This document shows, one piece after another, positions 1 to 31,784 of a stretch of DNA of 32,820 nucleotides. The notes beneath the pieces are model-generated. The model was not told the origin of the DNA. It worked only from the letters and a program-made list of their open reading frames with translations, and ran no database searches. The DNA comes from a virus (Duplodnaviria; Heunggongvirae; Uroviricota; Caudoviricetes), in the IMG/VR virus record IMGVR_UViG_2541047822_000005, one strand, 5' to 3'. How positions within the stretch are numbered: the stretch's first letter is position 1; each line of letters starts with the position of its first letter. The position numbers were made by a program, and so were the translations under genes.

Positions 1-483
1 ATGACGAAGAAAAAAGCACATAAACCTGGTTCAGCGACCATCGCGCTTAACAAGCGCGCCCGGCACGAATACTTTATCGAAGAAGAGTTCGAGGCGGGAC
101 TTGCCCTGCAAGGCTGGGAGGTTAAATCCCTGCGTGCAGGAAAAGCCAATATCAGCGACAGCTACGTCCTTCTGCGTGACGGAGAGGCATTTCTGTTTGG
201 CGCTAACATCACGCCAATGGCTGTGGCCTCCACGCATGTGGTGTGCGATCCTACCCGTACCCGCAAGTTACTTCTCAACCAGCGCGAACTGGACTCATTG
301 TACGGTCGCGTCAATCGAGAAGGCTATACCGTAGTGGCGCTCTCCCTGTACTGGAAAAATGCCTGGTGCAAAGTGAAAATCGGCGTCGCCAAAGGTAAGA
401 AACAGCATGATAAACGTTCAGATATCAAAGAACGCGAATGGCAGGTGGATAAAGCGCGTATCATGAAAAACGCCCACCGTTAA
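1..483 (+). CDS. smpB: SsrA-binding protein SmpB
   Basis: 160-aa ORF whose translation I recognise as enterobacterial SmpB; lies immediately upstream of ssrA as in the conserved smpB-ssrA locus. Confidence 0.95.
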
Positions 484-697: not shown

Positions 698-1060
698 GGG
701 GCTGATTCTGGATTCGACGGGATTTGCGAAACCCAAGGTGCATGCCGAGGGGCGGTTGGCCTCGTAAAAAGCCGCAAAAAATAGTCGCAAACGACGAAAA
801 CTACGCTTTAGCAGCTTAATAACCTGCTTAGAGCCCTCTCTCCCTAGCCTCCGCTCTTAGGACGGGGATCAAGAGAGGTCAAACCCAAAAGAGATCGCGT
901 GGAAGCCCTGCCTGGGGTTGAAGCGTTAAAACTTAATCAGGCTAGTTTGTTAGTGGCGTGTCCGTCCGCAGCTGGCAAGCGAATGTAAAGACTGACTAAG
1001 CATGTAGTACCGAGGATGTAGGAATTTCGGACGCGGGTTCAACTCCCGCCAGCTCCACCA
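698..1060 (+). ncRNA. ssrA: tmRNA (transfer-messenger RNA)
   Basis: Begins GGGGCTGATTCTGGATTCGACGGG and ends GGTTCAACTCCCGCCAGCTCCACCA; 363 nt with the tag-peptide reading frame region, matching enterobacterial ssrA as I recall it. Confidence 0.9.
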
Positions 1061-1183: not shown

Positions 1184-1666
1184 ATGGAAGAACTTCACTT
1201 TGTTTACATCAATGCAAATGGTCGTATCGGTGTTCACTCTATACAGAGCATCAGTTATAGCGAAAATCATATACAGGGCATTTGTAAGAACACCGATCGA
1301 ATAAAAACCTTCCGAAAAGACCGCATTCTTAAACAGTACGATTCACCAGAACAAGCCATTCAGGAGTGCGCGTCATTCCTCCCCGAAAACTACTCACATC
1401 TCACCAAGCAGTTTGGTCCGAAAAAAAATACATTCGATGTGTGTTTCACCGGATTTAAGAAAGCAGATAAAGAAAGATTGGTTGATAAGGCGAATGAACA
1501 AGGATTAACGGTAAGAACCTCTGTAACCCAAAGCCTTCAGATGCTCTGTTGCGGTTACAATGCAGGCCCATCAAAAGTATCGGCAGCCAGGATGAAAGGC
1601 ACAATCATCATAGATGAACCTGGCTTTATACATTTTCTTGAAACGGGTGAGATCCCAGATGAATAA
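1184..1666 (+). CDS. hypothetical cargo protein with WYL-like N-terminal region and BRCT-like C-terminal domain
   Basis: 160-aa ORF with an AGAGG ribosome-binding site 7 nt upstream. N-terminal KTFRKDRI resembles the WYL-domain R-x-F-R-x-D-R-I motif; the C-terminal half aligns by eye with the LigA-type BRCT fold. AT-rich relative to flanks. Located between attR and ogr. Confidence 0.6.
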   Translation: MEELHFVYINANGRIGVHSIQSISYSENHIQGICKNTDRIKTFRKDRILKQYDSPEQAIQECASFLPENYSHLTKQFGPKKNTFDVCFTGFKKADKERLVDKANEQGLTVRTSVTQSLQMLCCGYNAGPSKVSAARMKGTIIIDEPGFIHFLETGEIPDE

Positions 1667-1695: not shown

Positions 1696-1911
1696 AAAAT
1701 TCATATGCCCCTGACCACCTGGCAATGGATGTGGAGGAGCAGTAGCAATCAGTGCGGGTGTCACAATAAACCGGACCACTGTTTCATGGGTAACAAAAGT
1801 ACTCCCGCAGTTAATATTTTGGCACTGGCAGTAACGCTCTTTGGTGCTTTCAGTTACTTGAAAACTGCTCCTTGTGTGTGCCGCATGACCACACTTTGGA
1901 CAATTCATCAT
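1693..1911 (-). CDS. ogr: Ogr/Delta-family zinc-finger late transcription activator
   Basis: Translation from the internal ATG (MMNCPKCGHAAH...RYCQCQNINCGSTF...PHPLPGGQ) gives a 72-aa C4 zinc-finger protein resembling P2 Ogr; the track ORF is longer at 1693..1956. Confidence 0.85.
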   Translation of the reverse strand: MMNCPKCGHAAHTRSSFQVTESTKERYCQCQNINCGSTFVTHETVVRFIVTPALIATAPPHPLPGGQGHMNF

Positions 1912-1979
1912 ATCCAGATCCCTACCTTTGCTATCAGAATCATTGTAATGATACACAAAATATCAATATTGAGAACACT

Positions 1980-3080
1980 TTATTCCATTTCAAGATCATC
2001 AATCTTCACTTCGAGTTCAATACTGGTTGTAAAACCGTTATCCGGGCTGACGGTATGTGTCAGAGTCGTAATGGTCCATTCCGCATCATCTATCGGCTGT
2101 TTAAAACCACTGACCTTCACAGGCATTTCCGTGTAGAGATCTGCCCGCCCTTCTGCCAGTTGTAGAGAAAATGACGCAACGCCGCGTTGCAGGCGTTCCC
2201 ACTGCATTTTCGCCGCTCGTTCGGCGTTGCTCCGGTTGGCATAAGTGCGATTAAGTACCAGCACGTTTTCATCCGTACCCACCAGGTAATCGCCCTGCTT
2301 CGCTTCTGGCTCTTTCTTCTGCTTCTTAGTTCTGCGCTTACGCTTCACCGTGGTGCTTTCTTTCTTCGCAGGTTCGCGGGTATGCAACCAGCTGGCAATT
2401 ACGCCCGTGTAGGCTCCGCGATCTGCCAGGGTAAATCGGTGACTGTCGCCGTCCTTGCGTGTGATAGTGATCACTGGCAGAGGTTTACCAGTGGCGCTTT
2501 TGCCCTGCCCCTGCCGGATGAATAACAGATTGCCATTTTTCACCGACGCGATGGCACCGTACTGTCGCGCCAGCCGCATCAGAAAACTGCCGTCACTCTC
2601 ATTAGTCTGGTCTATATGCTCCACGGGCTTATCCGACAGGTCTTTACCCAGTGCCATCTTCAGCTTGTGCCGCGCGGCTATTTCCTTCACCACTTCCCCG
2701 ACGGTGGTCTTATGCCACGATTTTTCACGGCGGGTATTCAGCGTTTCCCTAAAATCAGCACTTCGCGCCCGGATAGTCAGGCGATCCGGTGCGCCAGTGT
2801 GTTCAATCTCGTCCACCGTGAATGCCCCTTTCGGGAAAAGCGGCTGCCCCTTCCAGCCCAGCGCCAGCGTAATGACCGCACCACGGCGCGGCAGCACGAT
2901 TTTTCCGTCGGCGTCGTCCAGCTCCAGATCAAGCTGGTCCGCTTCAAAGCCCCGGTTATCCGTCAGCGTAAGCCCCATCAGGCGTTTGTCCAGCACAGTG
3001 GTGATATCCTTCCCCTCAATACTGATGCTGAATGCGGGAGTTTTGTTGCCTTTGTTAAGCAGTTCAGAGCTGAAATTCAC
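1980..3080 (-). CDS. D: tail protein D (late control gene D family)
   Basis: 366-aa ORF in the P2 gpD position, overlapping the U stop by 4 nt (ATGA); translation resembles the gpD family. Confidence 0.85.
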   Translation of the reverse strand: MNFSSELLNKGNKTPAFSISIEGKDITTVLDKRLMGLTLTDNRGFEADQLDLELDDADGKIVLPRRGAVITLALGWKGQPLFPKGAFTVDEIEHTGAPDRLTIRARSADFRETLNTRREKSWHKTTVGEVVKEIAARHKLKMALGKDLSDKPVEHIDQTNESDGSFLMRLARQYGAIASVKNGNLLFIRQGQGKSATGKPLPVITITRKDGDSHRFTLADRGAYTGVIASWLHTREPAKKESTTVKRKRRTKKQKKEPEAKQGDYLVGTDENVLVLNRTYANRSNAERAAKMQWERLQRGVASFSLQLAEGRADLYTEMPVKVSGFKQPIDDAEWTITTLTHTVSPDNGFTTSIELEVKIDDLEME

Positions 3081-8959: not shown

Positions 8960-9532
8960 TCAGGGAGATTTATTGTTCTTATTTGCCGGAAATTTTCGAT
9001 AAATGGTAGAAACGCCTACATCAAAAATCAGTGCAATACGCTGTCTTGATTCTCCGGCCTCGAGTAAACGCCCAATCTGTGCCCACTGTTCGCTGGTCAA
9101 CTTAGGACGGCGTCCACCTACTCTGCCTTTAGCACGAGCTGCAGCCAGCCCCGCCCTGGTACGTTCAACTATCAGTTCGCGTTCCATTTCAGCCAGGGCA
9201 CCCATGACATGAAAAAAGAAACGGCCCATTGGGGTGCTGGTATCAATACTGTCAGTCAGGCTTCGGAAATTCACGCCACGCTGGCGCAGCTCTTCTATCA
9301 GCGTAACAAGATGCCGCATACTGCGCCCCAGTCTGTCCAGCTTCCAGACAACCAGCGTGTCTCCTGCCGATAGTGTCCTGAGCAGCTTTTTCAGCCCCGG
9401 TCTGTCGGACTTGGTGCCACTGATTTTATCCTCAAAAATCCGCTCACATCCCGCACAGTTCAGTGCATTGCGTTGCAAATCGGTGTTCTGGTCATTTGTT
9501 GACACGCGTACATAGCCAATAAGCATGATCAT
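8960..9532 (-). CDS. Hin/Gin/Pin-family serine DNA invertase
   Basis: 190-aa ORF with the serine recombinase N-terminus IGYVRVSTNDQ and a C-terminal HTH; sits beside inverted crossover sites flanking the tail-fibre 3' region. True start may be 2 codons downstream. Confidence 0.9.
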   Translation of the reverse strand: MIMLIGYVRVSTNDQNTDLQRNALNCAGCERIFEDKISGTKSDRPGLKKLLRTLSAGDTLVVWKLDRLGRSMRHLVTLIEELRQRGVNFRSLTDSIDTSTPMGRFFFHVMGALAEMERELIVERTRAGLAAARAKGRVGGRRPKLTSEQWAQIGRLLEAGESRQRIALIFDVGVSTIYRKFPANKNNKSP

Positions 9533-9581
9533 CCCCCTGAATAAAAACCGGAGATGATGCCAGTTAGCCGTTATCTCTGCA

Positions 9582-9607
9582 TTTTCATAAACGTTGGTTT
9601 GGGAGAA
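9582..9607. repeat. hix/gix-like inversion crossover site (left)
   Basis: TTTTCATAAACGTTGGTTTGGGAGAA is an inverted copy of the site at 11383-11408, sharing the 14-nt core TTCTCCCAAACCAA. Confidence 0.7.
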
Positions 9608-9913
9608 GCGGCAAAACGGAATGTGGGAACAGGGGAAAATCAGATACCTAGTATGTCAGAATGGACATCTGGGACAGGATGGAATAGAGACCCGTCGGGG
9701 AGAATAATACAGCGGGGATTTGCTATGGCATCAAATCAAACTAACATTTTATTCCCGATACCATTTCCGTATGACGATTTCGAAGTTATCGTTTGTGCAG
9801 CAGATACAGGAACAAATAAAGGGGCCGTAAATGTGTTGCAAAAATCGAGGCAGGGGTTTTCTGTTTCACAGGTTGGAAGTATGCCAGTCGCATACAGATG
9901 GATAGCGGGGTGA
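9608..9913 (+). CDS. silent alternative tail-fibre C-terminal segment
   Basis: Reading frame continuous through the crossover site; both copies encode GLGE in frame, so inversion would fuse this 102-codon segment to the constant part of H. Confidence 0.55.
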   Translation, partial: AAKRNVGTGENQIPSMSEWTSGTGWNRDPSGRIIQRGFAMASNQTNILFPIPFPYDDFEVIVCAADTGTNKGAVNVLQKSRQGFSVSQVGSMPVAYRWIAG

Positions 9914-10356
9914 TTGAAATGTATAAATTTGATCCAAAGAATGCATTATTCTATCCTGCTGCGTCAATTTCCGATTATAAATTGAGCGAAGATGAAATCG
10001 CCACATTCACTGATATTAGCGAGGAGGATGCAACCGAGTTTTTAGGATTCCCGCCGACTGGAAAAATCAGAGGGTCGGACGGTTATGGCAATCCTGCATG
10101 GGTTGAAATACCTCCACCATCACATGAGGAACTTATTGAACAGGCCGAATCAGAGAGGCAATTATTGATTAACCATGCCAACGAATACATGAACAGTAAA
10201 CAATGGCCTGGTAAAGCGGCTATTGGTCGTCTGAATGGTGAGGAACTGGCGCAATATAATTTGTGGCTGGATTATCTGAACGCACTGGAACTGGTTGATA
10301 CCTCCAGTCCGCCAGATATTGAATGGCCTACGCCTCCGGCAGTTCAGGCCAGATGA
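9898..10356 (+). CDS. alternative tail fibre assembly chaperone
   Basis: 152-aa ORF with Tfa-like translation, convergent with G inside the invertible segment. Confidence 0.75.
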   Translation: MDSGVIEMYKFDPKNALFYPAASISDYKLSEDEIATFTDISEEDATEFLGFPPTGKIRGSDGYGNPAWVEIPPPSHEELIEQAESERQLLINHANEYMNSKQWPGKAAIGRLNGEELAQYNLWLDYLNALELVDTSSPPDIEWPTPPAVQAR

Positions 10357-10936
10357 CATCCGGCGCGGTGCTGGTATCTGTTGCCGTCACCGCGTCAATG
10401 TAATCCAGCACAGCGTTAAGTCGGGTGGTTTCTGCCTGCGTCAGTTTACGTCCAGCCTGCAATTTCAGTTGAATCAGACTGATGGAAGCCATTGCAGTAT
10501 CAATCAGTGACTGACGCTGTGCTTCTGCCGTGTCTACTGCGGCGCTATGCTGTGCCTCGGTATCTGTCACCCATTTCTCACCATTCCATTCATCGTATGG
10601 AGTTAACGGGGCGATAGTGGTTGTATTTTCAGGATAATCACCCAGAGCTGTGATTTCTTTCGATTCTCCTGTTTCGGTGCTATAGACGATTTCACCGCGA
10701 TGGTCTGGCACATATTCCCATGAGTTAAAATCTGCAGAACGGCAAATTGCATAACCAGCTTCATATGAGCCAGGAGCATCTAAACAGGAATATGCGGGAA
10801 TGCCGACACCAATGGCAAGATATTCTGTTGATGTGGAAATATATTCCCGCGTTTCTCCGTTGTAGTTATAAACGGTAATGAAGCCAGGTTCCGTGGCGAA
10901 CCCGTTTTCATCTAAGGAAATTTCTTTTGCGGTCAT
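10328..10936 (-). CDS. G: tail fibre assembly protein G
   Basis: 202-aa ORF with Tfa-like translation directly downstream of H. Confidence 0.85.
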   Translation of the reverse strand: MTAKEISLDENGFATEPGFITVYNYNGETREYISTSTEYLAIGVGIPAYSCLDAPGSYEAGYAICRSADFNSWEYVPDHRGEIVYSTETGESKEITALGDYPENTTTIAPLTPYDEWNGEKWVTDTEAQHSAAVDTAEAQRQSLIDTAMASISLIQLKLQAGRKLTQAETTRLNAVLDYIDAVTATDTSTAPDVIWPELPEA

Positions 10937-20886: not shown

Positions 20887-22653
20887 ATGAACACCACACT
20901 GACACCCGCAGATCTCGATCCCCGTCGGCAGGCCATGCTGCTGTACTTTCAGGGATACCGCGTAGCCCGCATTGCTGAAATGCTGGGCGAGAAAGTTGCA
21001 ACCGTTCACAGCTGGAAAAAACGCGACAAGTGGGGTGACTATGGGCCGCTTGATCAGATGCAGCTCACCACCGCCGCACGCTACTGCCAGCTCATTATGA
21101 AGGAGCACAAAGAAGGGAAAGATTTCAAAGAGATTGACCTGCTGGCGCGCCAGTCGGAGCGCCATGCGCGGATCGGCAAGTTTAACAATGGCGGCAACGA
21201 AGCCGACTTAAACCCTAACGTCGCCAACCGCAACAAAGGCCCGCGTCGTCAGCCGGAAAAGAACGTTTTCACCGATGAACAGATTGAGAAGCTGGAAGAA
21301 ATCTTCCATTCCTCCATGTTCAACTATCAGCGCCACTGGTGGGAAGCCGGAAAAACCAACCGCATCCGCAACCTGCTGAAGTCACGCCAGATCGGTGCGA
21401 CCTTTTACTTTGCCCGTGAAGCCCTGATTGACGCCCTGCTTACCGGACGTAACCAGATTTTCCTTTCTGCCAGTAAGGCACAGGCTCACGTCTTTAAGCA
21501 GTACATCATCGACTTCGCCAAAGAAGTGGAGGTGGAGCTGAAAGGCGATCCGATGGTGCTTCCCAACGGGGCCACACTGTATTTCCTCGGCACCAATGCC
21601 CGCACGGCCCAGAGTTACCACGGCAACCTGTATCTGGATGAATATTTCTGGATACCGAAATTCCAGGAGCTGCGCAAAGTGGCTTCCGGTATGGCTATTC
21701 ACAAGAAATGGCGACAGACCTATTTTTCCACGCCATCCAGCCTGACACACAGTGCTTATCCGTTCTGGTCCGGTGCGCTGTTCAACCGTGGGCGCAACAA
21801 AGCCGACAAGGTGGACATCGACCTGTCCCACAGCAATCTGGCCCCCGGCCTGCTGTGCGCAGACGGGCAATACCGCCAGATAGTCACCGTGGAAGATGCG
21901 GTGCGCGGCGGCTGTAACCTGTTCGACCTCGACCAGTTGCGCATGGAGTACAGCCCGGACGAATACCAGAACCTGCTGATGTGCGAGTTCGTTGACGATC
22001 TCGCATCTGTGTTCCCGCTCAGCGAGCTGCAGGCGTGCATGGTGGACAGTTGGGAAGTCTGGACCGACTTTCATGCACTGGCCCTGCGCCCGTTTGGCTG
22101 GCGCGAAGTGTGGATCGGTTATGACCCGGCAAAAGGTACGCAGAACGGCGACAGCGCCGGATGCGTGGTGGTGGCTCCGCCAGCCGTGCCGGGCGGTAAG
22201 TTTCGCATTCTTGAGCGTCACCAGTGGCGCGGGATGGACTTCCGCGCCCAGGCGGACGCCATCAAAAAACTGACTGAACAGTACAACGTGACCTATATCG
22301 GTATCGACTCAACCGGCGTCGGTCACGGGGTTTACGAGAACGTGAAAGCGTTCTTTCCTGCCGTCCGGGAGTTTGTCTACAACCCCAACGTTAAAAACGC
22401 CCTGGTACTCAAGGCCTACGACATTATCAGCCACCGCCGTCTGGAGTTTGACGCCGGACATACCGACATTGCGCAGTCATTCATGGCAATCCGTCGCGCC
22501 ACCACCGCCAGTGGCAACCGCCCGACCTACGAAGCCAGCCGCAGCGAAGAAGCCAGCCATGCCGATCTGGCATGGGCAACCATGCACGCACTGTTTAACG
22601 AACCGCTGCAGGGCGAGTCCGCCAATACCAGCAATATTGTGGAGATTTTTTGA
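20887..22653 (+). CDS. P: terminase large (ATPase) subunit P
   Basis: 588-aa ORF with gpP-like translation. Confidence 0.9.
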   Translation: MNTTLTPADLDPRRQAMLLYFQGYRVARIAEMLGEKVATVHSWKKRDKWGDYGPLDQMQLTTAARYCQLIMKEHKEGKDFKEIDLLARQSERHARIGKFNNGGNEADLNPNVANRNKGPRRQPEKNVFTDEQIEKLEEIFHSSMFNYQRHWWEAGKTNRIRNLLKSRQIGATFYFAREALIDALLTGRNQIFLSASKAQAHVFKQYIIDFAKEVEVELKGDPMVLPNGATLYFLGTNARTAQSYHGNLYLDEYFWIPKFQELRKVASGMAIHKKWRQTYFSTPSSLTHSAYPFWSGALFNRGRNKADKVDIDLSHSNLAPGLLCADGQYRQIVTVEDAVRGGCNLFDLDQLRMEYSPDEYQNLLMCEFVDDLASVFPLSELQACMVDSWEVWTDFHALALRPFGWREVWIGYDPAKGTQNGDSAGCVVVAPPAVPGGKFRILERHQWRGMDFRAQADAIKKLTEQYNVTYIGIDSTGVGHGVYENVKAFFPAVREFVYNPNVKNALVLKAYDIISHRRLEFDAGHTDIAQSFMAIRRATTASGNRPTYEASRSEEASHADLAWATMHALFNEPLQGESANTSNIVEIF

Positions 22654-23693
22654 TGAAAGAACATATCGCGCCAGGCGAAACCGTAACTGCAGAAGAAACT
22701 AAAAAACCCGTTGCTGAGGCTTTCAGCTTTGGTGATCCCATTCCTGTACTGGACCGCCGCGAACTGCTGGACTATGTGGAATGCGTACAGATGGATCGCT
22801 GGTATGAGCCGCCCGTCAGTTTTGACGGACTGGCACGAACCTTCCGCGCCGCCGTGCACCACAGCTCCCCGATCAGTGTTAAACGTGACATCATCAGCAG
22901 TACCTATATTCCACATCGCCTTCTCAGCCAGCAGGCATTTACCCGTTTTGTGCAGGACTATCTGGTTTTTGGTAACGCCTATCTGGAGAAGCGCACGAAT
23001 CGCTTTGGTGAAGTTATTTCGCTGGAGCCTGCACTGGCAAAATACACCCGGCGCGGGCTTGACCTTGAAACATACTGGTTTGTGCAATACAGCCTGACGA
23101 CACAGCCGTATCAGTTCACAAAAGGTAACGTCTTCCACCTGATGGAGCCGGATATCAACCAGGAGATTTATGGTCTGCCGGGTTACCTTTCTGCCATTCC
23201 GTCAGCTCTGCTCAACGAATCCGCCACGCTGTTCCGCCGCAAGTATTACATTAACGGCAGCCACGCAGGCTTCATCATGTACATGACCGACGCCGCGCAG
23301 AACCAGGAGGATGTGAACAACATCCGCAAGGCAATGAAAAGTGCTAAAGGGCCGGGCAACTTCCGCAACCTGTTTATGTACTCGCCTAACGGCAAAAAAG
23401 ATGGCATTCAGATTATCCCGTTGTCGGAAGTCGCGGCGAAGGATGAATTTCTGAACATCAAGAACGTCAGCCGCGATGACATGATGGCGGCTCACCGCGT
23501 ACCGCCGCAAATGATGGGCATCATTCCCAACAACACTGGCGGCTTTGGTGATGTGGAAAAAGCGAGCCGTGTCTTCGTCCGCAATGAACTGATGCCACTG
23601 CAAAAGCGACTGCAGGAGCTGAATGACTGGCTGAATGAAGAGGTGATCCGTTTTGAAGCTTATGACTTAGGGCTTAAGGGCAAACGAGGCTGA
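22650..23693 (+). CDS. Q: portal protein Q
   Basis: 347-aa ORF with gpQ-like translation, overlapping the P stop. Confidence 0.9.
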   Translation: MMKEHIAPGETVTAEETKKPVAEAFSFGDPIPVLDRRELLDYVECVQMDRWYEPPVSFDGLARTFRAAVHHSSPISVKRDIISSTYIPHRLLSQQAFTRFVQDYLVFGNAYLEKRTNRFGEVISLEPALAKYTRRGLDLETYWFVQYSLTTQPYQFTKGNVFHLMEPDINQEIYGLPGYLSAIPSALLNESATLFRRKYYINGSHAGFIMYMTDAAQNQEDVNNIRKAMKSAKGPGNFRNLFMYSPNGKKDGIQIIPLSEVAAKDEFLNIKNVSRDDMMAAHRVPPQMMGIIPNNTGGFGDVEKASRVFVRNELMPLQKRLQELNDWLNEEVIRFEAYDLGLKGKRG

Positions 23694-23766: not shown

Positions 23767-23849
23767 CCTGAATCTCCCCCCCCCTCCACTAAATGAGGCC
23801 GCCAGCGGGCCAGAGGCTGTGCCGGATTTTGGCCATTTTACCCCGTTGC

Positions 23850-23873
23850 GCGCGCTCGTATCCCCGCCACGCC
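23850..23873. other. cos site (cohesive-end region)
   Basis: The reverse complement of this stretch reads GGCGTGGCGGGG..., matching the start of the 19-nt cohesive end of phage 186 as I recall it; located between Q and the early region as in P2/186. Confidence 0.55.
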
Positions 23874-23916
23874 TGCCCGCTTTGTGTAGTGGTTTTCATG
23901 CACCTGCATGACATAA

Positions 23917-23942
23917 GCAAAAGCCCGCCAGTTCTGGCGGGC
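23917..23942 (-). terminator. putative terminator of the tum-like/dinI-like transcript
   Basis: Perfect 8-bp GC stem (GCCCGCCA / TGGCGGGC) followed on the minus strand by TTTTGC. Confidence 0.45.
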
Positions 23943-24076
23943 CTGAGCAAAAACGATCCTCAAACGATCATGCGATTTCATGCGGCATAGACATGCACAA
24001 CAGCACTAACGCCTCGCGTGGCTCGTTGTTCAACCTTGCGGACGGTAAAAACCAGTTTTATCGTCCGCAACGTTCG

Positions 24077-24310
24077 CTAATGTAACCAGCTGTCGTCCTC
24101 CCAGACCTGCTGCATTATTTCCATCACTCGCTTTTTATCTTCATCCAGTTTTAACCCGCTCAGCTCAACGCCGTTGGCACTGCCCTTACGGATACGAATT
24201 GCTGTTTTGGGATACAGAGGGCGCAAATTACGGTAAAGCTCGGATTCAAGGGCGTCCAGTGTAGCCTGGCTAATCTTCTGCTCTTTATCGATCATTATTT
24301 CAATGCGCAT
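24077..24310 (-). CDS. DinI-like protein
   Basis: 77-aa ORF whose translation resembles the DinI family; downstream of a LexA-boxed small gene. Confidence 0.75.
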   Translation of the reverse strand: MRIEIMIDKEQKISQATLDALESELYRNLRPLYPKTAIRIRKGSANGVELSGLKLDEDKKRVMEIMQQVWEDDSWLH

Positions 24311-24321
24311 ACAGATTTCCC

Positions 24322-24510
24322 TTAACTGGTTACGTCCATTGACCGGCAGTATTCATGGCTGCGGATTTTCGCCATCAGCTCGTCGGTCAATTCAGACACC
24401 CACTGGATAGCCAGCCGCTTTTCTTCGTCGCTGCACTCACTAGCCGCTACAAGCTTAATAAAAAAATCAATGCGCTGGAGCTTCAACGACTCCAAAAGAT
24501 AGTCCTGCAT
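24322..24510 (-). CDS. small LexA-regulated protein, possibly Tum-like antirepressor
   Basis: 62-aa ORF from the internal ATG, which has a strong AGGAGGG ribosome-binding site (track ORF is 24322..24537). Function assigned only by position and the LexA box. Confidence 0.5.
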   Translation of the reverse strand: MQDYLLESLKLQRIDFFIKLVAASECSDEEKRLAIQWVSELTDELMAKIRSHEYCRSMDVTS

Positions 24511-24558
24511 CTTCCCTCCTATCACGACCCCGGACATGCGTTAACTGTATGCATATCC

Positions 24559-24578
24559 ACTGTTTATATATACAGTAT
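24559..24578. promoter_or_regulatory. LexA box (SOS operator)
   Basis: ACTGTTTATATATACAGTAT matches the CTGT-N8-ACAG consensus, about 50 nt upstream of the small-gene start; an additional CTGT half-site lies at about 24545. Confidence 0.7.
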
Positions 24579-24671
24579 ACCCCTGATATCCAAAAGTAAA
24601 ATATTTTTTATCCGTCAATGAGAACGTTCTTACGAGGGTCGTTAAGAGCATGAATTGTTAAAGCCTTGCCG

Positions 24672-27065
24672 TCAGTACCACTGGCGCCATTTGTCATCTT
24701 CCTGCAGTCGATGGTTGCGGTAAAAAATCCGTAGCCCGGCACCTGACGGAATGCTGCCACCACGCAGAAGCAAATCAATCTCAGATGCACTACCTTCAAA
24801 CCCTCTGGCAGTCAGTTCTGCCTCAAGCTGCAGGCGCTGCTGCTCCGAAATACTCTGTTTGAATGCTTTTTTCCGCTTCGGTTTTACCAGTCTTAACCTG
24901 GCTGTCAGCTCCCGGCGTTCCTTCTGGCCCATATTGTGGAGGTAATCGTGCAGTTCCTGCTCATTCATGGTTTTAATATCTGGCAAATCACCCCCTGATT
25001 TGTTCAGATTTTCAACAGGGGGACAGTTATTGCCACGAGTCCAAGGGGCGCAAGCGCCCTGGTCGGCTGCCGCCTCCTGAACGTCAACGGCCTTACGAAC
25101 CATTTTCCACTTCACGGCATGAGTGCAGATCTTGCCCTCTGCAATAGGTGACCAGATGCCATAAATACGAATGCCGTGATCGCCATAGGCGGTCGGCTCT
25201 TCGTTGATTTCATAAGCAGTTCTGATGAGGTGATATTTACGGGGAACCAGTACGCCGCCCTGCTTCATGATGTAGGTGGCAAAACAACCAGCATCAGCAG
25301 CAGCCAGAATGGCATCAAGACGCGGGTTATCCAGTACCGGCGCACCTGCTTTTTTGTCACCCTGTTGCCTTGCCGCCTGACCAGCCAGCAAGCGAAGTTC
25401 ACGGTAAGCCTGACGCCCCGGAATACCAAAGAAGCGGAATTGCTGAACACGATGCAGAGACGCCCAGGCATTCACGTATTCAGCGTTATCACGCAGAGAT
25501 TTACCCGTTTCCTTGCTGATCTCGCCAGCCAGACCACGACCGTCAATGTTCTTACTGATATATTTCGCGATGTAGCTTGTCGGCGTTCCTTTGCGCGGGT
25601 TAATCAACTCAGACTTAAAGCGCGGCCCAGTGTTATTGCCCAGCTCCTCGCGGTCTTCACGGATGGCAAACTTACGCAGTAATGCAGTGATGGCACGGCG
25701 GTCTTTTTTGCGCATGAAACACAACAGGTGCCAGTGAACTGTGCCATCATGATGCGGCTCAGCCACCCGCACGCCATACCAGCGCAACCCGGCTTTGTGC
25801 ATCGCCTTACGAAATGCAGCAAACATGCCGACCAGATAATCGCTGCTTTGTCTTACCGTCGCGTTTGTCCAGGTCGGGTTTGGTCTGCCGTTATTTAGCG
25901 TGGAATGGAAACGCGACGGACAGGTGATAGTGTAGAAAACGGCGCAGTCACCGCGCATTTCCGCGATAAGCTCCAGACCTTTAACACAGGCCATCATCTC
26001 ATTGCGGCGATGCGCAGGGTTGCTGCTGCTGGCGTTTACCACATCCTCCATGTCCAGCGTGTCGCCGTCTTCGTTCACCAGTTCATGAGAACGGAAAAAC
26101 TCCAGCGACTTACGGCGCTGCTCACGTTTATGCATCACGGCTTCATAGCTGACATAAGGAGATGCTTTTTTGCTGACTAGGCAAACAGCGCGCAACTGCT
26201 CTTCCCGCCATTCGCAACGCATCTTCCATAATTTCCGATACCACCAGTCGGCGCACAACATACGCGCCAGCGAACCCGGAATGAGTTCATAGGGCACGGG
26301 TTTACGGCGGTTTCTTTTCCGACGAAGTTTCTCAAACGCAGGCGGGATAACATCCAGACGCAGGGTTTCCGCAGCCACCTTTTCCCATGTCTTGCGGATT
26401 TCTTCTGGCTTAACGTCATCGGTGGCGTACAAATCACCACAAGCGGCCTCAAGACACATGCTCATATGCGCTGCTACCAGGGTGGACAGGCGTTTCACCT
26501 GATCCTGGCTCATTTCAGGCAGGATCAGCAGCCCCTCCAGCCCTTGATGGCTTGCCATAAAACGGAAAGAAACAGATAGCTGACTGTCACGTACACAATC
26601 CAGTCGCTCCAGACATGGCTTAATCGTCTCACGCAAATAGCGGGAATAAGCCTTTGGCCTGCCCAGGCTGCTGAAGTATTCGATACGTTGCATCAGCGGC
26701 TTGCTGATATGAGAAGGCTGGGCGCTGACATCTGCCAGAATGACCATGTCCGGGTTAAAACGCTGCTGCTCATGCGCCAGCTTTGCCCGGCTAATGAGCT
26801 TATCCTGCTCCATTTCGCGCTGGACAGGATCACGGGATTCATTAAAGAAATAACGCTCCCAGACCTGCTCACTCAGTGCCTCGCGGCGCAGTTGTTCCTG
26901 CTCGTTATCGGCAGCGTACAGAGTGATCAGGTTTGAAAGTGCAGACTCCGGCGCAACTTCCGCCGGATCCAGATAAGGGTTAATGGCCTTTTTCGGGCCG
27001 TTCCATGAAAATGCTGCGGCAGCCTCGTTAAAGCCGCTAGAGTTGCTCATATCGTCATGACTCAT
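24672..27065 (-). CDS. A: replication initiation protein A (rolling-circle nickase)
   Basis: 797-aa ORF with gpA-family translation in the expected early-operon position. Confidence 0.85.
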
Positions 27066-27919
27066 ACACGCACCTCGTACACAGCAGAACTATCCACGCC
27101 ACGCGAAGGATCAAATCCCATCCAGCAGCGCGACCCGGAAACAGCAATGATTTCTGTTGCAGATTTACTCTCGCCAGCTGACACGCCGATGCTGCGTTTT
27201 GCCTTGATGTAGTGGTGAGTGAAATTGCGATACAGCGAACGGATCAGGGATGTGTCACTGTTAGAAACAATGACCGGATGACCTTCTGATGATCGATATT
27301 CAAGAACGGATGCCAGGTGATACTGGTCATCTTCAGTGAAGCCGTTAGTGTGATAACCGGAAAACGTGCCGTCATACGGCGGATCGCAATACACCACATC
27401 CCCCGCCTTCAACATCGCCAGCGTTTCATCAAAGCTGGCGCAGATAAACGTTGCTCGCTGGGCCTTTTCTGCAAATGCGCGAATTTCTTTTTCAGGGAAA
27501 TACGGATTTTTATAATTACCGTAGGGAATGTTGAAATGCCCGCTCTTGTTATAGCGACATAAACCACGGTAACCGTGACGATTGAGATACAGGAAATATA
27601 CCGCTTTCATGAAATCAGTAATTTCAGTTGAGTAATTAAACTCCTGCCTTATGTTGTAATAAGCCACCTCCCTGTTTGCGATCTCAAATAAAACTCTGGC
27701 GCGAGATATAAACGATTCACAATCAGAGGCAACCTTTTTATAGAGGTTGATTAAATCAGGATTAATATCCGCAACCAGATAGCTGGGGTAATCCGTCTCC
27801 ATCATCACAGCACAGGAACCCGCGAAAGGTTCAACCAGTCGCGGGCCAGCAGGAAGGTGTTTTTTCAGTTCGGACATAATGGCGGTTTTATTTCCCACCC
27901 ATTTCAGGATGGTGCTCAT
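27062..27919 (-). CDS. Dam-like DNA N6-adenine methyltransferase
   Basis: Conserved ILKWVGNK N-terminus, FAGSCAV S-adenosylmethionine-binding motif and DPPY catalytic motif. Start taken at the internal ATG, which overlaps the upstream stop in an ATGA arrangement (track ORF is 27062..27979). Confidence 0.85.
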
Positions 27920-28143
27920 ACAGCACCTCCGTTGTAATGTTTGCCTTTCAGCTCTGCGATTTCCTGACAGGTAATGCAAAGCTGCACACCCGGAATGGCA
28001 CGGCGGCGTGCTGGCGGAATTGGCGCTTCACACTCAACGCAAAGCACGCGGGACACGCCCGGCGTTTTGGCACGGGCAGCACGGATATGACGTTGGCGTT
28101 CTTCTTCAACTCGCTGCTGTACGAGATCCATTGCATCAGCCAT
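27916..28143 (-). CDS. TraR/DksA-family C4 zinc-finger protein
   Basis: 75-aa ORF with CxxC-N17-CxxC (CVECEAP...CITCQ). Confidence 0.7.
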   Translation of the reverse strand: MADAMDLVQQRVEEERQRHIRAARAKTPGVSRVLCVECEAPIPPARRRAIPGVQLCITCQEIAELKGKHYNGGAV

Positions 28144-30101: not shown

Positions 30102-30740
30102 TTGATTATGAGTTTAATCAAGGCGGGGAATGATAGTGGTGGGCGCGATGCGATTAATAGGCTTATTAAGGCTTACAACTTCAGCTCACGACAGCAGCTC
30201 TGCGAACATCTGGAAGTATCAAAAAGCACTATGGCTAACAGATACTTAAGGGATAGCTTTCCTGCCGAATGGGTAATCCAATGTGCCCTTGAAACAGGAG
30301 CTTCCCTTCTATGGCTGGCTACTGGTCAAGGAGATATGTATGCGTGTGAGAACGAAGAAACAAATCTCAAAAATGAACCTCCCGTCACTGTAAGACCACT
30401 TTCTAAGATCGTTGCTCCTAGCATCAAACGTGTTGAACTGAAGAACGGCGAACTGCAGCCAAGTGATGAAATTCTTCTTGATAGCAGCCTGCTCGATGGT
30501 GACTCATCCAACGCTTTATTTGTTAAAACAGCTAATGATAGCTTTGTAGTGGATACGTCTGTTAAACAAGTCAGTAATGGCTTCTGGTTAGTCGATATGG
30601 ACGGAGTTAAAAGCATCGTCAAAATTGCGCGCATACCCGGAAACAAAATAGTAGTTAACCAAGATGACACTTCATTTGAATGTTCTGTAGATGATGTGGA
30701 AGTCGTAGGACGTGCAGTCAAAGTAATCAAGAACCTCTAA
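30102..30740 (+). CDS. cI: CI-like immunity repressor (186 type)
   Basis: 212-aa ORF with an N-terminal helix-turn-helix and a distinct C-terminal domain; upstream of and co-oriented with int. Confidence 0.75.
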   Translation: MIMSLIKAGNDSGGRDAINRLIKAYNFSSRQQLCEHLEVSKSTMANRYLRDSFPAEWVIQCALETGASLLWLATGQGDMYACENEETNLKNEPPVTVRPLSKIVAPSIKRVELKNGELQPSDEILLDSSLLDGDSSNALFVKTANDSFVVDTSVKQVSNGFWLVDMDGVKSIVKIARIPGNKIVVNQDDTSFECSVDDVEVVGRAVKVIKNL

Positions 30741-30743
30741 CTT

Positions 30744-31784
30744 ATGACCATCAGAAAACAGCCGAACGGAAAATGGTTGTGTGAGTGCTATCCCAATGGA
30801 CGCAATGGTAAGCGCGTGCGTAAGCAATTTGCTACCAAAGGCGAAGCCATTGCGTTTGAAAGCTTCACAATGGAAGAAGTGAACAAAAAACCATGGCTAG
30901 GGGAAAAGGAAGATCGGCGACATCTATCAGAATTAATTGAGCTGTGGTATTCCCTGTATGGTCAAACACTCGCAGACCCCAAGCGCCTCATGGCGAAACT
31001 TAGAATTATCTGTAATGGTCTAGGCGATCCCATCGCCTCAGAACTGACAGCTGGTGAGTTTACGAAATACCGCGAAGCACGGTTAAAAGGTGAAGTACGA
31101 AATGAAGATGGCACGCTTATGTCGCCCGTTAAGCCCCGCACGGTAAATCTTGAACAGCGCAACCTATCATCTGTTTTTGGTACACTGAAAAAGCTGGGCC
31201 ACTGGTCAGCCCCCAACCCGCTTGCTGGGCTGCCAACATTTAAAATTGCTGAGGGTGAATTGGCGTTCCTGACCCCGGAAGAAATTAAACGTCTGCTGGA
31301 TGCCTGTGCTGATTCTCAAAGCCCCAGTCTGCTGATGATTGCAAAAATATGCTTGGCCACCGGCGCACGCTGGAGCGAAGCCGAAAACCTACAGAGTCAT
31401 CAGGTATCAAAATACCGTATCACTTATACCAAGACTAAAGGAAAGAAAAACCGAACAGTGCCTATTTCAAAGGATTTATATGAAGAACTGCCTAAGAATA
31501 GGGGAAAATTATTTACACCTTGTAGGAAAGCTTTTGAACGTGCGGTAAAACGAGCTGGTATCGAGCTACCAGAAGGGCAATGCACACACGTATTACGACA
31601 TACATTTGCAAGTCACTTTATGATGAATGGCGGAAACATACTGGTGCTGCGCGATATTCTGGGCCATGTCGATATAAAAATGACAATGATTTACGCCCAC
31701 TTCGCTCCCGACCATCTGGAAGATGCTGTAACCAAAAATCCTCTTGCTAACCTTGGATGGAGAAAATTAGAAAGTGCTTGTTAA
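30744..31784 (+). CDS. int: tyrosine integrase
   Basis: 346-aa ORF with the tyrosine-recombinase C-terminal motifs (R...HVLRHTFASHFMMNGG...LGH...MTMIYAH). Confidence 0.9.
   Translation: MTIRKQPNGKWLCECYPNGRNGKRVRKQFATKGEAIAFESFTMEEVNKKPWLGEKEDRRHLSELIELWYSLYGQTLADPKRLMAKLRIICNGLGDPIASELTAGEFTKYREARLKGEVRNEDGTLMSPVKPRTVNLEQRNLSSVFGTLKKLGHWSAPNPLAGLPTFKIAEGELAFLTPEEIKRLLDACADSQSPSLLMIAKICLATGARWSEAENLQSHQVSKYRITYTKTKGKKNRTVPISKDLYEELPKNRGKLFTPCRKAFERAVKRAGIELPEGQCTHVLRHTFASHFMMNGGNILVLRDILGHVDIKMTMIYAHFAPDHLEDAVTKNPLANLGWRKLESAC

Follow-up and report, generated by a model that had tools for sequence, protein, structure and literature searches.

A putative LexA-controlled tumA/tumB operon of the 186 p95-tum type in a Fels-2-like prophage

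The window analyzed here is a stretch of 32,820 nucleotides of viral DNA (Caudoviricetes; IMG/VR record IMGVR_UViG_2541047822_000005). At positions 24077-24578 it carries a small SOS module, all parts of which lie on the minus strand. We consider it very probable that this module is a two-gene (tumA/tumB) version of the p95-tum module of phage 186, and that it acts as a LexA-controlled antirepressor switch of the prophage. The anatomy that supports this consists of the two best matches to a LexA matrix in the window, a p95-like promoter, a ribosome-binding site (RBS), two tightly spaced open reading frames (ORFs) and a terminator. The module as such is already known: it is an ordinary, well-characterized tumA/tumB SOS operon of Fels-2/186-type P2-like phages. 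The additions made here are a second LexA box, a TumA protein that does not track the CI repressor, a dinI-like gene that is optional, and a gap in annotation. A 186-type pathway with a LexA-repressed antirepressor was also the interpretation offered by the original prediction. It is supported by the p95-like operator, by homologues of the N- and C-terminal parts of Tum, by a 186-type immunity region and by orthologues that have been tested.

The following sequence of events is proposed. In the lysogen, host LexA would sit on the strong box 1 over the -10 hexamer, and probably also on the weaker box 2, which overlaps box 1 by one base; occupation of both boxes is predicted from their sequences, and the operon would be silent. 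Upon DNA damage RecA would be activated, LexA would cleave itself and the operon would be transcribed. By analogy with close orthologues, induction should depend on LexA cleavage and on tum. TumA, a 62-aa two-helix hairpin, would then bind the 186-family CI non-covalently, and CI would lose its operators. The early lytic promoter (pR) would then fire, leading to Apl/excision, replication gene A and the late genes; both the TumA-CI contact and the release of pR in this phage are expected from the related systems. The 77-aa DinI-like protein, made from the same transcript, would most likely tune the SOS signal through RecA filaments, and would be dispensable for the switch itself. The roles of this protein and of box 2 are ones that we infer.

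Promoter, LexA boxes and the two genes

A sigma-70 promoter of the SOS operon is inferred from the sequence at 24572-24600 (minus strand). It has the -35 hexamer TTTACT (24600-24595), a 17-nt spacer and the -10 hexamer TACTGT (24577-24572), and appears to be the counterpart of 186 p95. The annotated p95 is built as TTCACA-18-TACTGT, compared with TTTACT-17-TACTGT here, and a LexA box lies over the -10 hexamer in both. Related loci were collected with an alignment of the close TumA family. The arrangement TT(T/C)ACA-17-TACTGT, with a box over the -10 hexamer, was found in 41 of the 43 loci examined.

LexA sites were scored with a symmetric position weight matrix, for which 24 LexA sites of E. 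coli served as the training set; these training sites themselves score 13.3-27.8 bits. Box 1, TACTGTATATATAAACAGTG (24558-24577, minus strand), has an exact CTGT-N8-ACAG core at 24575-24560 that overlaps the -10 hexamer, and reads ACTGTTTATATATACAGTAT on the plus strand at 24559-24578. It scored 27.3 bits and ranked first in the 32.8-kb window. For comparison, the best score per simulated window had a mean of 10.9 bits (standard deviation 2.4 bits) and a highest value of 18.0 bits (n = 200). The box ends 49 nt before the tumA ATG, so that the canonical LexA box claimed about 50 nt upstream of a 62-aa ORF was found as predicted, on a strand (minus) that the prediction had left unstated. Of 41 related loci, 40 carry a box that scores at least 15 bits ahead of tumA.

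The site inventory of the original prediction was right about box 1 and overlooked a second, LexA-like box. This box 2, CAGTGGATATGCATACAGTT (24543-24562, minus strand), has a GTGG-N8-ACAG core at 24560-24545 and lies about 12 to 27 nt downstream of the -10 hexamer. With 15.6 bits it ranked second in the window and falls inside the range of the training sites; the third-best match in the window reached 12.6 bits. The cores of the two boxes share one base, and their starts are offset by 15 nt. A second box of at least 13.3 bits was found at +15 (once at +16) in 26 of 41 TumA-type loci, despite diverged flanks, among them Fels-2, DuoHS and Yersinia phage MLG42. A single box is present in 13 of the 41, about half of which belong to Pantoea, Erwinia or Tatumella; of the two remaining loci, one is truncated at a contig end and one has decayed. 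186 and PSP3 have one box each and lack box 2. Double-box loci have 48-63 nt between the -10 hexamer and the ATG; 186 and the majority of single-box loci have 32-35 nt. Two Tatumella loci (L022 and L025 in our numbering) have their single LexA box and promoter about 97 nt upstream of tumA, compared with 40-67 nt otherwise, behind a long and unrelated leader.

Two candidate assignments were discarded. An exact CTGT-N8-ACAG inside the dinI-like ORF (24202-24217) scored 7.5 bits, has a GC-rich centre and was taken as a chance match. A MAFFT alignment of the upstream regions paired the single box of 186 and PSP3 with box 2. In the promoter register the shared box is the one over the -10 hexamer, and box 2 is the extra, downstream one.

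The layout of 24543-24577, with two LexA boxes overlapping by one base at one promoter, is that of colicin operators, which are characterized by an overlap of one to two bases. In colicin genes, two overlapping boxes bind two LexA dimers, which results in very tight repression and in expression in a small fraction of cells (PMC2994835). Double boxes are a hallmark of these operators and prevent untimely, lethal expression (PMC2994835). In both cases two LexA boxes with an overlap of about one base control a promoter that is lethal to the cell when it fires at the wrong time; the likeness is one of layout only. By this analogy, the tight-repression logic of colicin operators would suit a prophage trigger. 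The sequence used in the comparison is that of the ColE1 operator.

The first gene of the operon, tumA, encodes 62 aa (24322-24510 with the stop codon, minus strand) and is preceded by the RBS AGGAGGG at 24520-24514, 4-10 nt upstream of the ATG. A 71-aa reading from the ATG at 24537 was rejected: the extension varies among relatives (62-157 aa), nearly all of which retain the AGGAGG+ATG start. RefSeq annotates the 189-nt version of tumA in the 100%-identical locus of E. coli TUM13936.

The sequence comparisons support the 62-aa protein as a homologue of the N-terminal, antirepressor part of 186 Tum. An alignment of 28 TumA family sequences, compared with 186 Tum by hhalign, gave a probability of 94% and an E-value of 8.5e-8, with residues 2-46 aligned on residues 2-46. 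The 62-aa ORF matches phrog_698 at 4.6e-36, and residues 1-70 of 186 Tum match the same family in register at 5.9e-6. Further matches were obtained to phrog_8554 (6.6e-8) and phrog_1993 (2e-3), families that contain 186 Tum and PSP3 TumA. Among closer relatives, the protein is 100% identical to SopEPhi orf10, 87% to Fels-2 STM2728 and 90% to ECHS_RS04495 of E. coli HS. ECHS_RS04495 is the gene named tum in the Phollow study of the prophage DuoHS of that strain (PMC12055606). In DuoHS, an in-frame deletion of tum or a lexA(Ind-) allele abolished mitomycin-C lysis, virion assembly and viral foci (PMC12055606). AlphaFold2 predicts TumA as a two-helix hairpin, with helices at residues 2-23 and 28-61 and a mean predicted local distance difference test (pLDDT) score of 87.9. 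A Foldseek search of this model against the PDB returned generic helical hairpins only, all with E-values of at least 0.79.

The second gene (tumB, dinI-like) encodes 77 aa at 24077-24310 (stop codon included, minus strand) and starts 11 nt past the tumA stop. As the original prediction had it, a DinI-like ORF follows the 62-aa ORF: the match to Pfam DinI (8.8e-24) covers positions 2-63 of the 63 in the family, includes the acidic C-terminal helix ending in W, and is joined by a match to phrog_189 at 5.3e-30. The protein is 41% identical to residues 71-145 of 186 Tum. Against E. coli DinI (1ghh) it aligned over residues 1-75 with an E-value of 6.5e-9, with EILQETWE against EIMQQVWED. It reached 51.7 bits with the NCBIfam equivalog model of host DinI, below the cut-off of 111 bits, and is thus a phage paralogue rather than the host dinI. 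The DinI-like part lies downstream of the antirepressor part as a separate gene, as in PSP3 and Fels-2.

The operon does not always include this second gene: 21 of 41 loci have it behind tumA, and in the others varied cargo comes after tumA. Because a dinI-like gene is lacking in about half of the related loci, we regard tumA with its LexA-controlled promoter, and not dinI, as the conserved core. The loci with tumA and the LexA-controlled promoter without a dinI-like gene are L011, L012, L020, L023-L025, L027, L030 and L032-L043. Part of the cargo in place of the dinI-like gene, named by eye only, consists of methyltransferase-like, NTPase-like and HipA-like ORFs.

A strong hairpin terminator had been predicted at the end of the module. 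Two structures are indeed present there, both of them outside 24077-24578. The first, found by RNA folding directly past the dinI-like stop, is a long imperfect hairpin without a U tract (24032-24074, minus strand). It is possibly a partial terminator like 186 t95a, to judge from its position, which matches that of t95a after tum in the 186 annotation. The second is a canonical intrinsic terminator (23911-23944, minus strand), obtained both by a terminator scan and by RNA folding. Its hairpin (23944-23921) has a 10-bp stem with 7 GC pairs and a 4-nt loop, followed by TTTTGCTT, and folds with a z-score of -4.0. A 47-aa ORF at 23838-23981 (minus strand) spans this terminator and cos, and Yersinia phage MLG42 has it annotated as a hypothetical protein. 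We do not treat it as a gene, because its recurrence in other loci most simply reflects conserved cos DNA.

Weighing of the antirepressor reading

Several points speak against the module being an antirepressor switch. The support that comes from the window itself consists of sequence anatomy, homology and conservation. A generic promoter scan did not call the promoter of the SOS operon, the -10 hexamer of which is weak; the scan missed it because this hexamer fits only three of the six consensus positions. Pairwise BLASTP gave no alignment of the 62-aa ORF with 186 Tum or with PSP3 TumA, so that the homology of TumA to Tum is drawn from profile methods; the same search with PSP3 TumA against 186 Tum was likewise empty. 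The role proposed for the DinI-like protein is weakened by the Gifsy prophages, in which non-polar deletions of the dinI homologues had no significant effect on induction (PMC3121763). Finally, TumA and CI similarity are not correlated among the related loci, which is unexpected for a specific antirepressor-repressor pair.

The comparison of TumA with CI was drawn from loci L004 and L006-L043, with a Mantel test on 32 loci. Relative to the proteins of the window, identity in all loci is 69-100% for TumA and 31-93% for the neighboring CI. In two loci TumA is 100% identical and CI only 37-38%. One locus of Pantoea stewartii combines a TumA of 90% identity with an adjoining CI that is 60% identical to 186 CI. 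Over the 32 loci, the median pairwise identity was 80% for TumA and 41% for CI (55% in its N-terminal and 32% in its C-terminal domain). The Mantel test revealed no correlation of TumA with full-length CI (r = -0.08, p = 0.80), nor with its N-terminal (r = 0.04) or C-terminal domain (r = -0.13) taken separately.

One tentative explanation, to which we give rather less than even weight, is that the Fels-2-type TumA is a generalist and not an immunity-specific antirepressor, and that it recognizes a surface common to all 186-family CI proteins. This idea follows from the near-identical TumA proteins found beside CI proteins that are about 31-40% identical to each other, with uncorrelated similarities. 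A candidate for the shared surface may be the conserved N-terminal segment ...STMANR..R..FP..W...C.LETG.SL.WL.TG.G. of CI. As a lead, there is support for induction beside two CI proteins that differ widely, in DuoHS by deletion and in Fels-2 by a paper title only: Fels-2 reportedly makes lexA null mutations lethal, going by the title of Bunny et al. 2002. If TumA were a generalist, the induction of one P2-like prophage could spread to heteroimmune prophages of the P2-like type in the same cell, and the conserved box 2 would set a high damage threshold for this shared trigger, as in colicin operators.

The lack of co-variation also bears on an alternative in which the module is an idle relic. 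Here the module would be intact and the prophage not inducible by SOS, either through a mismatch of TumA and CI after recombination or through a defect in excision, replication or late activation. Mismatched pairs are conceivable, because TumA and CI assort independently among relatives, and the module can decay, as locus L041 with its decayed box and without a tumA ORF demonstrates. In this prophage, however, all parts of the module are intact and near consensus. The TumA of this prophage, 87% identical to that of Fels-2, together with a CI that is 93% identical to that of Fels-2, makes essentially the Fels-2 pairing. A locus in the complete genome of E. coli TUM13936 matches the module at 100% identity over 571 nt, and the other prophage ORFs examined are full-length. 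We therefore regard an idle relic as improbable.

Least probable is an SOS-regulated accessory (moron) cassette that modulates host RecA/SOS through the DinI-like protein, next to an unrelated 62-aa ORF without a role in the lysis-lysogeny decision. A curated family is matched by the DinI-like ORF alone, the TumA fold is predicted to be a generic helical hairpin, and TumA has no Pfam, NCBIfam, PADLOC or PDB sequence match and is labelled as a hypothetical protein in every source, but such a cassette is at odds with the loss of DuoHS induction upon deletion of the 90%-identical orthologue, with the in-register profile homology to the Tum N-terminal region and with the presence of tumA without a dinI-like gene in about half of the related loci. 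The antirepressor switch thus remains the reading that we prefer.

Distribution and prophage setting

Of 5426 complete E. coli genomes, 1201 contain the module, a BL21 derivative among them. It was also found in 37 species-representative genomes from across Enterobacterales and matches 58 phage records. The TumA family is narrow and makes up 58 clusters (50% identity) out of 1.84 billion representatives. The 62-aa antirepressor thus occurs in about one fifth of complete E. coli genomes and across Enterobacterales, yet Pfam and NCBIfam hold no model for it, and PHROG 698 is listed with unknown function. Inducibility of P2-like prophages is systematically missed by annotation, because TumA lacks a family model and is called hypothetical. 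A TumA family model would close this gap. A 90%-identical orthologue has been shown by deletion to be needed for induction. For this prophage, DNA damage by ultraviolet light (UV), mitomycin C, quinolones or gut inflammation should trigger induction, which sets it apart from the non-inducible P2 proper and bears on host lysis, on phage transfer and on any phage cargo. The module itself stays a known one; box 2 and the missing co-variation of TumA and CI would refine the view of the induction threshold and of cross-talk between prophages.

From its sequence context, the module is the SOS operon of a Fels-2/SopEPhi-type P2-like prophage at ssrA. The window opens with smpB (1-483, plus strand) and the tmRNA gene (698-1060, plus strand; tag ANDENYALAA), an integrase gene lies at 30744-31784, and in a comparison of annotated records the prophage gene order is collinear with Fels-2. 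Together these features place a P2-like prophage at ssrA, the integration site used by Fels-2 and SopEPhi. A search within the window for att direct repeats of at least 20 nt returned none that was convincing.

Replication gene A (797 aa, 24672-27065, minus strand) was taken from the ORF list, and its counterpart is annotated as a replication endonuclease in homologous loci. The SOS operon starts about 70 nt past its stop codon. The far edge of the interval is cos (23855-23873, no strand assigned), the reverse complement of which reads GGCGTGGCGGGGATACGAG. Its position was obtained by homology, from an alignment with the two ends of the 186 genome. The left end of 186 agrees in 13 of its first 13 nt, and the flank resembles the 186 right end. 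Past cos, the portal and terminase genes lie on the opposite strand (22650-23693 and 20887-22653).

The interval from the stop of gene A (24672) to cos measures about 800 bp and contains only tumA and the dinI-like gene. No defence genes were found between gene A and cos, where PADLOC returned 0 matches, in agreement with the predicted absence of genes like old and tin. The original prediction was also correct in placing the module at the position that P2 uses for these genes: the interval from A to Q/cos is the published P2 old/tin hotspot (PMC9122126). Relatives carry varied cargo at this spot.

The immunity repressor CI (30108-30740, plus strand) belongs to the 186 family, with Pfam matches to Phage_CI_repr (8e-33) and Phage_CI_C (1.3e-40). 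Pfam reported no further domain in CI, and CI thus lacks a self-cleavage domain of the LexA type (S24). Its identity to 186 CI is 32-33%. The immunity region is of the 186 type, with apl and cII beside CI as annotated in collinear relatives.

Three further features of the prophage were observed. A serine invertase (Pfam Resolvase and HTH_7) lies within 8960-10936 and adjoins oppositely oriented cassettes for the tail-fibre C-terminus and tail-fibre assembly (9554-9913 and 9898-10356 on the plus strand, 10328-10936 on the minus strand); the region resembles an invertible host-range segment such as the one annotated in Fels-2. Directly upstream of gene A, and overlapping it, is a gene for a D12-class (Dam-type) DNA adenine methyltransferase (27062-27979, minus strand), an arrangement shared with Fels-2, SopEPhi and DuoHS. 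Two ORFs of 160 aa (1184-1666, plus strand) and 143 aa (1705-2136, plus strand), the latter overlapping the gene D ORF of the other strand, lie between the tmRNA gene and the end of the late genes. They have no Pfam match and may be cargo or spurious.

Comparison with known systems

The Gifsy dinI-gfoA/gftA operons resemble the module in design. They share a LexA box and a small operon of a DinI homologue and a small antirepressor, and the repressor is inactivated without being cleaved (PMC3121763). In contrast to the module studied here, dinI comes first (reversed order), the phages are lambdoid and the repressor belongs to another family.

PSP3, Fels-2 (STM2728/STM2726.1), SopEPhi (orf10/orf11) and DuoHS (tum) agree with the module in the split of tum over two genes, in position and in control by LexA. 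In Fels-2 and PSP3, tum is split in two by a stop codon (Lemire et al. 2011, PMC3121763), and the upstream gene of PSP3 provides orthologue evidence on the requirement for induction (PMC3121763). The PSP3 record describes tumA as "similar to 5' end 186 tum; UV induction of prophage" and tumB as "similar to dinI and 3' end of 186 tum". PSP3 differs in having a TumA of another sequence family (phrog_1993), which is about 12% identical, and a single box. A review credits the induction of SopEPhi in the inflamed gut to the SOS-driven antirepressor Tum (PMC9827884), which may be the orf10 product. Fels-2, DuoHS and SopEPhi carry extra cargo genes between dinI and cos, whereas this prophage has none. 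DuoHS differs further in its CI, which is only 37-41% identical to the window CI by BLASTP and by alignment.

Another related system is the SOS operon of 186 (p95 - tum - orf97). Its Tum is a LexA-controlled inhibitor that sequesters CI after derepression of p95 (PMC7708051). As in 186, the module is located after gene A and before cos, has a LexA box over the -10 hexamer TACTGT and sits in a prophage with a 186-type CI/Apl/CII switch, the CI of which has no self-cleavage domain and belongs to the target family of Tum. The N-terminal part of Tum corresponds to the 62-aa ORF and its DinI-like C-terminal part to the 77-aa ORF. Several differences were noted. 186 has one LexA box, in contrast to the two overlapping boxes and the leader here, which is about 25 nt longer; a homologue of orf97 is not present in this prophage; and the antirepressor part has diverged too far for BLASTP. 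In 186 both parts are fused in one frame of 146 aa, whereas they form two genes here. In the 186 record an internal GTG start is annotated as well, from which a DinI-like product of 77 aa is made on its own; in function, the fused layout is thus close to the split one.

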